Positions 60,259 to 64,000 of a DNA stretch of 64,000 nt are shown here, one piece after another. The notes under the pieces are model-generated. The model was not told where the DNA came from. It ran no database searches and saw only the letters and a program-made list of their open reading frames with translations. This stretch comes from Escherichia coli (GTDB lineage: Bacteria > Pseudomonadota > Gammaproteobacteria > Enterobacterales > Enterobacteriaceae): NCBI RefSeq assembly GCF_016026235.1, contig NZ_CP065613.1; one strand, given 5' to 3'. Position 1 is the stretch's first letter. Each line of letters starts with the position of its first letter. Made by a program: the position numbers and the translations under genes.

Positions 60259-61176
60259 ATGAATATTCGTGATCTTGAGTACCTGGTGGCATTGGCTGAA
60301 CACCGCCATTTTCGGCGTGCGGCAGATTCCTGCCACGTTAGCCAGCCGACGCTTAGCGGGCAAATTCGTAAGCTGGAAGATGAGCTGGGCGTGATGTTGC
60401 TGGAGCGGACCAGCCGTAAAGTGTTGTTCACCCAGGCGGGAATGCTGCTGGTGGATCAGGCGCGTACCGTGCTGCGTGAGGTGAAAGTCCTTAAAGAGAT
60501 GGCAAGCCAGCAGGGCGAGACGATGTCCGGACCGCTGCATATTGGTTTGATTCCCACGGTTGGACCGTACCTGCTACCGCATATTATCCCGATGCTGCAC
60601 CAGACCTTTCCAAAGCTGGAAATGTATCTGCATGAAGCACAGACCCACCAGTTACTGGCGCAACTGGACAGCGGCAAACTCGATTGCGTGATCCTCGCGC
60701 TGGTGAAAGAGAGCGAAGCATTCATTGAAGTGCCGTTGTTTGATGAGCCAATGTTGCTGGCTATCTATGAAGACCACCCGTGGGCGAACCGCGAATGCGT
60801 ACCGATGGCCGATCTGGCTGGGGAAAAACTGCTGATGCTGGAAGATGGTCACTGTTTGCGCGATCAGGCAATGGGTTTCTGTTTTGAAGCCGGGGCGGAT
60901 GAAGATACACACTTCCGCGCGACCAGCCTGGAAACTCTGCGCAACATGGTGGCGGCAGGTAGCGGGATCACTTTACTGCCTGCGCTGGCTGTGCCGCCGG
61001 AGCGCAAACGCGATGGGGTTGTTTATCTGCCGTGCATTAAGCCGGAACCACGCCGCACTATTGGCCTGGTTTATCGTCCTGGCTCACCGCTGCGCAGCCG
61101 CTATGAGCAGCTGGCAGAGGCCATCCGCGCAAGAATGGATGGCCATTTCGATAAAGTGTTAAAACAGGCGGTTTAA
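60259..61176 (+). CDS. oxyR: LysR-family hydrogen peroxide sensor OxyR
   Basis: ORF track 60229..61176; start at ATG 60259 ([40 protein letters not shown]...) giving 305 aa. Confidence 0.97.
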
Positions 61177-62559
61177 ACCGTTTAACGCAGCTACCCGATA
61201 GGCTTCCGCCATCGTCGGGTAGTTAAAGGTGGTGTTGACGAAGTACTCAATAGTGTTGCCGCCACCTTTCTGTTCCATAATCGCCTGACCGATATGAATA
61301 ATCTCGGCAGCGCGCTCGCCAAAGCAGTGAATGCCCAGAATCTCTTTTGTTTCCCGATGGAACAAAATTTTCAGCGTGCCCACGTTCATGCCGACGATTT
61401 GTGCACGTGCCAGATGTTTGAACTGGGCGCGGCCCACTTCATATGGCACTTTCATCGCGGTCAGCTGCTGTTCGGTTTTGCCCACAGAGCTGATTTCCGG
61501 GATGGTGTAAATGCCTGTAGGGATATCTTCAATCAGATGCGCGGTGGCTTCGCCTTTTACCAGCGCCTGCGCGGCAATGCGCCCCTGGTCATAGGCCGCT
61601 GATGCCAGGCTCGGATAACCAATCACGTCGCCCACCGCGTAAACGTGCGGCTGTGCGGTCTGATACATGCTGTTGACCTTCAGCTGTCCGCGACTGTCAG
61701 TTTCCAGCCCAATGTTCTGTAACGCCAGCGAATCGGTATTACCGGTACGACCGTTGGCATAGAGCAGGCAGTCAGCTTTCAGTTTTTTACCCGACTTCAG
61801 ATGCATGATCACACCGTCGTCACAGCCTTCGATCTTCTCGTACTCTTCGTTGTGACGAATCACTACGCCACTGTTCCAGAAGTGATAGGAGAGAGAATCT
61901 GACATCTCTTGATCGAGAAATGCCAGCAGGCGATCGCGGGTGTTGATCAGATCCACTTTTACATCCATACCGCGGAAGATCGACGCATATTCACAGCCGA
62001 TCACTCCAGCACCATAGATAAGTACATGGCGCGGTTCGTGGTGCATGCTGAGAATTGAGTCGCTGTCGTAAATGCGTGGATGGGTGAAATCAACATCTGT
62101 TGGATGATATGGACGAGAGCCGCAGGCAATAACAAATTTTTCAGCGGTTAGTGTTTCAACGCTGCCGTCCGGGCAATCCAGCGCCAACGTATGCTCGTCA
62201 ACAAAGCGAGCGTTCCCCTGCAATATTTCACAGTGATTACGTTCGTAAAATCCCTGACGCATGCGCGTTTGTTGATTAATCACGTTATCGGCATGGTTAA
62301 GGATATCGGCAAAAGAAGAGCGGAGCAGTCGGGAATGGTCGCTGTATAGTGGGTTTTGATTGAATTCTATAATGCGGCTGACGGCGTGACGGAGAGCTTT
62401 CGACGGGATGGTGCCCCAGTGGGTGCAACCGCCGCCAACATTTTGATAACGCTCGATAACTGCGACGCGCGCACCTTGCTTAACTAGGCCCATTGCAGCG
62501 CCTTCGCCGCCGGGGCCGGAACCTATTACTATGGCATCGTAATCGTAGGAATGTGGCAT
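61159..62559 (-). CDS. sthA: Soluble pyridine nucleotide transhydrogenase
   Basis: 466-aa ORF ([24 protein letters not shown]...); 3' end overlaps oxyR convergently by 18 bp. Confidence 0.96.
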
Positions 62560-62809
62560 GGTAGGGCTTACCTGTTCTTATACATAAAAGCAACAGAATG
62601 GTAACATTTTATCGCGGGTAAGCCAATTGATCCCCGTCATTAATCTGGCTATAGCGTGAGCGGCCTTTGCTTTGTCTGCCTCCTTCTTAACCCATTTATT
62701 CACTATTAATCGCTTTTTATTATGGCTGATAGTTTTATCTTGCCGAAGCGTGCTTTTTTGTTATTGTCTTTATGAAATCTTCTTATAAAACAAACATATA
62801 AATATTTTA

Positions 62810-62843
62810 TATTGATGGGTTATTTGTATTTATACCATCAATA
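62810..62843. promoter_or_regulatory. Candidate operator: 9-bp perfect inverted repeat upstream of the M20D hydrolase gene
   Basis: tattgatgg-N16-ccatcaata in an AT-rich region, 46 bp upstream of ATG 62889. Confidence 0.35.
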
Positions 62844-62888
62844 AAATCCGTTAATTAGCCTGTTTATAAGTGAATAAAGGAATAGCCG

Positions 62889-64000
62889 ATGATCGAACAC
62901 TATATTCGAGGGTTTGAGGAAGAACTGCGTGAGATCCGCCATCAGATCCACGAAAACCCGGAGCTGGGATTACAAGAATTTAAAACCAGTGCTTTGGTTG
63001 CGGAAAAGCTGCGTCAGTGGGGCTATGAAGTAGAGCAAGGACTGGCGACGACGGGGATAGTGGCCACGTTAAAAGTGGGCGACGGAGAGAAAAGTATTGG
63101 CCTGCGGGCGGATATGGATGCGCTGCCGATTTATGAAAATAGTGGCAAGCCCTGGGCCAGTAAACATCCTGGTTTAATGCACGCCTGCGGGCATGACGGG
63201 CATACCACCATACTGCTGGGGGCCGCGCGTTATTTTGCCGAAACCCGCCGTTTTAACGGCACGTTACGTCTTATCTTCCAGCCTGCGGAAGAGATGATTA
63301 ATGGCGGTGAGATCATGGTTAAAGAGGGGCTTTTTGATCATTTCCCCTGCGATGTCATTTTCGGCATGCATAACATGCCCGGTCTGCCGGTGGGTAAGTT
63401 TTATTTCCAGCCAGGGGCACTGATGGCGTCAATGGATCAGTTCCATATTACAGTTCGTGGTTGTGGCGGACACGGTGCGATCCCGCACAAAGCCATCGAT
63501 CCGGTGCTAGTTGCCGCACATATCACCACCGCATTACAAAGCATTGTGTCACGCAATGTCGATCCGCTGGAAGCGGCGGTAATTACCGTCGGCAGCATTG
63601 TTGCGGGTGAGGCGGCTAACGTCATTCCTGACAGTGCTGAGATGAAAATCAGCGTCCGCTCTCTTAGCCGCGATACCCGACAACTTCTTCTGACCCGTAT
63701 TCCTGCTCTGGCACAAGCCCAGGCTGCCAGCTTTGGCGCTACGGCTGAGGTTACGCATGTTAACGGTACACCAGTATTAGTAAATGACGAGGAGATGGCG
63801 CGCTTCGCCTGGCAGGTGGCGTGTAAAACGTTTGGTGAAGATCGGGCCGAGTTTGGCATCAAGCCTCTGATGGGCAGTGAAGATTTCTCTTTCATGCTGG
63901 AAGCCCAACCCAAAGGCGGTTTCCTGTTATTCGGTAATGGCGATGTCGGGGAAGGTTCCTGCATGGTGCATAACCCGGGTTACGACTTCAACGATGCAAG
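62889..64000 (+). CDS. M20D-family amidohydrolase (aminoacylase / hippurate-hydrolase-like), 3' end outside window
   Basis: ATG 62889 with aagga RBS; no stop before window end; translation MIEHYIRGFEEELREIRHQIHENPELG...MHACGHDGHTTILLGAARYF... carries the metal-binding signature typical of peptidase M20D; missed by the ORF track because it is open-ended. Confidence 0.8.
   Translation, partial: MIEHYIRGFEEELREIRHQIHENPELGLQEFKTSALVAEKLRQWGYEVEQGLATTGIVATLKVGDGEKSIGLRADMDALPIYENSGKPWASKHPGLMHACGHDGHTTILLGAARYFAETRRFNGTLRLIFQPAEEMINGGEIMVKEGLFDHFPCDVIFGMHNMPGLPVGKFYFQPGALMASMDQFHITVRGCGGHGAIPHKAIDPVLVAAHITTALQSIVSRNVDPLEAAVITVGSIVAGEAANVIPDSAEMKISVRSLSRDTRQLLLTRIPALAQAQAASFGATAEVTHVNGTPVLVNDEEMARFAWQVACKTFGEDRAEFGIKPLMGSEDFSFMLEAQPKGGFLLFGNGDVGEGSCMVHNPGYDFNDA

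Follow-up and report, generated by a model that had tools for sequence, protein, structure and literature searches.

Sequence comparison points to an M20D amidohydrolase-MFS transporter gene pair between sthA and fabR that the ancestor of Escherichia already had and the K-12 lineage lost by deletion

In E. coli K-12, the transporter AbgT has as its partner a cytoplasmic M20D hydrolase of an N-acyl amino acid, AbgA/AbgB, and the gene pair described here would follow the same logic. M20D enzymes of solved structure include Bacillus subtilis YxeP (1ysj), Arabidopsis ILL2 (1xmb), a Corynebacterium N-alpha-acyl-glutamine aminoacylase (6slf) and Staphylococcus aureus Sapep (4ewt). The transporters that matter for comparison are the metabolite:H+ symporters, i.e., the family of TcuC, CitA/CitH, KgtP, ProP, and ShiA. 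The locus itself, between sthA and fabR, is already known as a common, annotated presence/absence difference from comparative-genomics and transcriptome papers. Its genes correspond to CFT073 c4924-c4926, to ECs4892/ECs4893 of Sakai and to RefSeq WP_000569560.1 and WP_000125471.1, which are named "M20 aminoacylase family protein" (the M20D enzyme) and "citrate-proton symporter" (the MFS transporter). The CFT073 genes have been listed under "citrate metabolism" as an uncharacterised set that K-12 lacks (PMC2831201), and hipO (K01451) has been used as a clade marker (PMC4819403). Table 2 of the former paper lists the set as "absent" in O157, contrary to the direct O157:H7 sequence considered here; these calls probably reflect the rule of that paper that all three genes of the set be present (PMC2831201), and they were left out of account here. 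A literature search on the locus, using O157 and UPEC gene names and product names, found no functional study.

The window, i.e., the whole stretch of 64,000 nucleotides that was analysed, covers the left part of the locus (Table 1), with sthA as conserved flank and left anchor. The original prediction had stated that fabR is divergent from sthA in K-12 and had reported, where fabR was expected, an M20D amidohydrolase gene divergent from sthA and starting at 62889. Both statements are correct: in K-12 MG1655 fabR is directly divergent from sthA and the M20D gene is lacking, as is the MFS gene. The intergenic region between sthA and the M20D gene is 329 bp long and AT-rich as predicted, with a GC content of 0.34 versus 0.523 for the whole window, and only 0.2% of 329-bp windows are as AT-rich. 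AAGGAA lies 7 nt ahead of the M20D start codon, an ATG, and an in-frame stop is found one codon before this ATG. The frame stays open up to the window edge, again as predicted, over 370 codons; the M20D reading is not a frame error. Full-length relatives of the enzyme have 388 aa, and thus 18 codons and the stop codon fall outside the window.

Table 1. Features of the sthA side of the locus, in window positions
Feature	Position	Strand	Remarks
sthA (soluble pyridine nucleotide transhydrogenase)	61159..62559	-	466-aa ORF; annotated sthA in 99.7-99.9% identical genomes
K-12-shared spacer part (sthA leader/promoter side)	62560..62679		116/119 identical to K-12; GC 0.45
AT-rich leader/regulatory region of the M20D-MFS pair	62680..62888	+	absent from K-12; GC 0.278
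Inverted repeat ATTGATGG-N16-CCATCAAT	62810..62841		read from sequence
Predicted M20D metallo-amidohydrolase gene, codons 1-370 of 388	62889..64000	+	truncated by window edge

Over positions 62400-64000, many complete E. coli genomes, O157:H7 included, share 99.7-99.9% identity with the window. The gene order in O157:H7 493/89 and in the best match, FDAARGOS_943, is oxyR, sthA (on the minus strand), M20D (388 aa), MFS (438 aa), fabR-yijD, and trmA. This answers, for near-identical genomes, the question of the original prediction whether a transporter or a regulator lies downstream: it is an MFS transporter, followed by fabR-yijD-trmA. The MFS gene starts 42 bp 3' of the M20D gene on the same strand, in a 99.9% identical genome as well as in O157:H7, and fabR lies about 100 bp beyond it. 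As the window stops before the MFS gene, its presence in this strain is deduced from the genomes that are 99.7-99.9% identical over 62400-64000.

Judged from its sequence, the product of 62889-64000 is an M20D metallo-amidohydrolase. It matches PF01546 (1.2e-43, residues 72-384) with the inserted dimerisation domain PF07687 (1.8e-12, residues 184-279), i.e., the same two-domain architecture as in YxeP, ILL2, 6slf, and 4ewt, and it scores 358.9 bits with TIGR01891 "amidohydrolase", above the cut-off of 153.75. Matches to solved relatives are nearly full length for YxeP (1.9e-71) and ILL2 (4.7e-69), and with 6slf and 4ewt (1.5e-64) included the E-values range from 1e-64 to 1e-71. The family assignment of the original prediction, which had been based on the MHACGHDGH signature, is thus borne out by profiles and structures alike. 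This motif (residues 97-105, window 63177-63203) aligns with MHACGHDFH of YxeP, and QPAEE (131-135), GMHN (159-162), and VHNP (360-363) align with QPAEE, GMHN, and HHP, respectively. The residues aligned with the YxeP motifs are C100/H102, E134/E135, H161, and H361, and these Cys/His/Glu/His/His residues are presumably the metal ligands, by analogy with the family. The N-terminus aligns with those of soluble relatives and has no extension, which suggests a cytoplasmic location. Similarity to the four solved enzymes is only moderate, and as acyl/amino-acid specificity differs among them a substrate cannot be transferred from any of them. None of the equivalog-level NCBIfam models scored above its cut-off; the N-acetyl-diaminobutyrate deacetylase DoeB2 (NF038260), for example, gave 321.8 bits against a cut-off of 550, and no ectoine genes are found near the M20D gene in near-identical genomes.

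Outside Escherichia the closest relatives among 50%-identity cluster representatives are only 51-59% identical. The closest one seen, from Pantoea ananatis (59%; L087:195-3464), sits between a gene of the choloylglycine hydrolase family (CBAH) and a PF03458 "Gly_transporter" gene, next to IS fragments. This neighbourhood may hint at N-acyl-glycine substrates in that branch.

The MFS fold of the transporter is supported by Pfam Sugar_tr and MFS_1. Its best NCBIfam resemblance, over the full length, is to the metabolite/H+ symporters (TIGR00883, 325.5 bits against a cut-off of 443.45), followed by the tricarballylate/proton symporter TcuC (285.3 bits against 445). As the protein falls below all curated NCBIfam cut-offs, its class is to be read as a best resemblance only. 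The RefSeq name "citrate-proton symporter" (L001:13699-15015) has no NCBIfam model above cut-off behind it. The pairing itself is also seen elsewhere, as M20D relatives of 51-52% identity adjoin the same kind of MFS gene in a Burkholderia genome and in one other contig, where the transporters are 33-37% identical to the Escherichia MFS over the full length; the Burkholderia pair is accompanied by a LysR regulator. The MFS protein next to a Neisseria homologue belongs to a different family and was not counted as conserved pairing.

Because the transporter resembles organic-anion proton symporters and its partner is an M20D hydrolase, proton-coupled import followed by hydrolysis seems the most economical reading of the pair. 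The MFS transporter would import an anionic amide-linked compound together with a proton, with an N-acyl-L-amino acid as the most probable substrate, and the M20D enzyme would cleave the amide bond in the cytoplasm to release a free amino acid and a carboxylic acid as nutrients.

Three other functions may be considered. First, the enzyme could be a small-peptide carboxypeptidase or dipeptidase, like CpsA or Sapep, that scavenges peptides instead of N-acyl amino acids. The score with the CpsA equivalog (NF040868, 335.4 bits) and the match to the S. aureus M20 peptidase 4ewt (1.5e-64) speak for this, but the CpsA cut-off is 500 bits and peptide uptake in bacteria usually goes through ABC transporters of the Opp/Dpp type or carriers of the POT family and not through carriers resembling carboxylate symporters, and we find a peptidase rather unlikely. 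Second, the enzyme could specifically be a hippurate hydrolase, i.e., a HipO orthologue that produces benzoate and glycine from imported hippurate. Hippurate is an anionic N-acyl glycine that would suit a carboxylate:H+ symporter, the Pantoea homologue adjoins a PF03458 gene, and databases use the names "Hippuricase" and "hippurate hydrolase" and the KO assignment K01451 (PMC4819403). These names, however, derive from similarity, the curated equivalog models score below cut-off, and similarity to the best characterised relatives, which act on other substrates, is only moderate. E. coli is also regarded as negative in the hippurate hydrolysis test, and we therefore consider this specific assignment improbable. 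Third, a citrate or tricarboxylate utilisation module is suggested by TcuC as second-best family of the transporter (285 bits) and by the names "citrate-proton symporter" in RefSeq and "citrate metabolism" in the literature (PMC2831201). It is very unlikely, as the TcuC score stays below the cut-off of 445 bits, no citrate lyase or tcu genes are adjacent, and the partner is an amide hydrolase for which free citrate, having no amide bond, is no substrate.

Of 5426 complete E. coli genomes, 1507 have the 2701-bp M20D-MFS segment at the sthA-fabR junction, O157:H7 and UPEC among them, and 1505 of these copies are full length and collinear. A K-12-type junction is present in 3912 genomes (72%). 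A FabR scan of species-representative genomes gave 80 loci. The pair is present at the same site in all five non-K-12-type Escherichia lineages retrieved, namely E. albertii, Escherichia sp. E1V33, E. coli E69, Escherichia sp. MOD1-EC7003, and one E. fergusonii genome, and it is absent from all 75 loci of other Enterobacterales, among these Citrobacter, Salmonella, Klebsiella, Enterobacter, Kluyvera, Yersinia, and Serratia. In those non-Escherichia loci whose contig extends to sthA, sthA and fabR are directly adjacent and about 190-200 bp apart (74 of 74). The outgroup spacer contains a short GC-stemmed hairpin-like sequence (e.g., L011:5803-6000 and L033:5803-6000), which at the Citrobacter amalonaticus locus L011 reads GTGCTTTTTTGCGAAGCTGAAGCAC; the Escherichia-specific segment occupies the position of this sequence.

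The direction of change can be read from the K-12 junction. K-12 is identical or nearly so to segment-bearing genomes up to window position 62679, and the match resumes 35 bp ahead of the stop codon of the MFS gene; in between, K-12 has 73 bp where segment-bearing genomes have 2701 bp. In the alignment with outgroups, two stretches of the 330-bp K-12 spacer have no outgroup counterpart, a left one of about 50 bp and a right one of about 55 bp, and both are contiguous with the segment in genomes that have it. The left stretch is the last ~50 bp of the K-12-shared spacer part, i.e., the retained, Escherichia-specific left end of the inserted segment (outgroup homology stops at about ...CCAATT). 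The right-hand remnant encodes YVKEPAKELQ-stop, which is the last 10 codons and the stop codon of the MFS gene, and related transporters likewise terminate at about this point beyond their last membrane helix. K-12 thus retains both ends of the segment and outgroups have neither, which shows an insertion in the ancestor of the genus and a later deletion in K-12-type genomes, and one scar common to 3912 genomes points to a single deletion event. By this comparison of sequences the M20D-MFS pair is an ancestral trait of Escherichia that the K-12 lineage has lost.

Some features of the scar and its surroundings may be added. No origin was found for the 73-bp filler of K-12 (L002:4911-4983) in six Escherichia segments, as local scores of 15-17 compare with a shuffle maximum of 15-19, and the filler has no detectable similarity to outgroup spacers either. 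E. coli SCPM-O-B-8794 (L009) has a more diverged copy of the K-12-type scar, which suggests that the deletion is old. The fabR start in the K-12 annotation is an ATG that lies 54 nt before the GTG chosen by PGAP (L002:5068 versus L001:15119), and this ATG is not conserved in outgroup spacers.

The original prediction had suggested a strain-specific insertion or replacement at the sthA-fabR junction. It is right in that fabR is displaced and in that an insertion took place, although in the genus ancestor; relative to K-12 there is no insertion, as K-12 carries a deletion scar, and with the distribution given above the locus is not strain-specific. A recent horizontal event would fit the lack of the M20D gene in K-12, the AT-rich leader and the lack of any relative above ~59% identity outside Escherichia among 50%-identity cluster representatives. 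Nevertheless we regard it as extremely unlikely. The collinear segment is present in 28% of complete E. coli genomes and at the same site in every other Escherichia species retrieved, and both of its ends are retained in K-12. The two genes are the only ones between sthA and fabR, where neither mobility genes nor a tRNA is found; neither the left boundary nor the leader shows meaningful repeats, and the leader has short AT-rich matches only. The coding GC content of the pair (0.53) equals that of the core genome, AT-richness being confined to the 209-bp leader. Finally, dS relative to the O157 allele is 0.17-0.67 across the genus, whereas recent transfers from E. coli would show values near zero.

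Both genes are under strong purifying selection. Across the genus the enzyme gene has dN/dS values of 0.03-0.08 and the transporter gene values of 0.02-0.05 relative to the O157 allele, and each of the seven lineages examined has both frames intact except for an early stop in the E. albertii enzyme. In E. albertii NBRC 107761 (L008:3371-4537) this stop lies three codons early (W386 to stop) in an otherwise intact gene. A decaying, functionless relic heading for loss, as the loss in 72% of complete genomes and the apparently poor expression unless a nucleoid antagonist is overproduced could suggest, is hardly credible given dN/dS values of 0.02-0.08, intact frames in seven lineages (E. albertii three codons short in the enzyme) and 1505 full-length copies out of 1507.

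Within E. coli the segment alleles fall into three identity classes, at least 99% (321 genomes), 95-99% (100 genomes), and 90-95% (1086 genomes). Between the O157-type allele and the commoner 90-95% allele (L001:13699-15015 versus L094:4420-5736 for the transporter) the transporter DNA differs by 8.4% and the enzyme gene by 3.9%, mostly at synonymous positions, against only 1.7-1.8% for sthA and fabR on either side. As the pair diverges more than its flanks, a deeper allelic split of the segment is indicated. The E. fergusonii locus (CP095843.1, L003) is 96-98% identical to O157 in oxyR, sthA, and fabR and 86% in yijD, an unevenness that suggests a mosaic, recombined locus.

The leader of the pair lies in the lowest 0.06% of 209-bp windows for GC content, and its identity across Escherichia species is 89-97%, about as high as that of coding DNA. 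The arms of an 8-nt perfect inverted repeat in it, ATTGATGG-N16-CCATCAAT, are invariant in seven Escherichia sequences, and we propose the repeat as a candidate operator. In the leader, scanning for promoters gave no sigma-70 match on the plus strand, matches in promoter and terminator scans were no more numerous than in shuffled sequence, and an Rfam scan of 62300-64000 gave nothing at E <= 1. Escherichia sp. MOD1-EC7003 has a 124-bp insertion in the leader (L010:3213-3336), immediately before the M20D Shine-Dalgarno sequence (...GTGAATCCCCAGGAGCTTACATAAGTAAGTGGCTGGG...), which we take to resemble an ERIC/IRU repeat element.

Such a conserved AT-rich leader is probably bound by nucleoid proteins, which would probably keep expression low. 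Upon overproduction of TosR, c4924 ("putative hippuricase") was among the most induced genes with a log2FC of 6.6; TosR is a PapB-family regulator predicted by the authors to bind AT-rich DNA and to antagonise H-NS and Lrp (PMC5956150). This induction is consistent, if indirectly, with silencing through the leader. ECs4893 of Sakai was 2.09-fold up at entry into stationary phase (PMC2241611).

Taken together, we think it very likely that the locus represents an ancestral M20D-MFS uptake and hydrolysis unit that was lost by one deletion in the K-12 lineage. As the sequence comparison shows, the sthA-fabR spacer of the Escherichia ancestor acquired the unit, purifying selection has kept it since, and in one E. 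coli lineage, comprising K-12 and 72% of complete genomes, a single deletion put 73 bp in place of the 2701 bp. It is tempting to speculate further that the pair serves a genus-specific salvage of a host N-acyl amino acid, normally silenced through the leader and activated by antagonists of H-NS such as those of the PapB family. Substrates could then be hippurate, phenylacetylglutamine, or N-acetyl-aspartate of gut contents or urine. We consider this extended proposal possible but unlikely; if true, commensal-type strains would, through the K-12-type loss, differ in metabolism from O157- or UPEC-type strains.

The locus illustrates that K-12 is a poor reference for the "expected" gene order, as the K-12 state is the derived one. 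It also presents a metabolic module, conserved and under strong constraint, that O157:H7- and UPEC-type E. coli have and K-12 lacks. Assignment of a substrate would be a modest but useful gain for E. coli metabolism, and otherwise there is little here beyond bookkeeping.

Compared with described systems, the transporter is closest, over its full length, to the metabolite:H+ symporter family, but with scores below the cut-offs it is an orthologue of none of the characterised members. The p-aminobenzoyl-glutamate hydrolase AbgA/AbgB of K-12, although also M20D, is far more distant from the enzyme than YxeP is (2e-35 for the Abg-type structure 3io1 versus 1e-71). Unlike the Abg system, the pair has a gene for a single enzyme subunit and an MFS transporter in place of AbgT.
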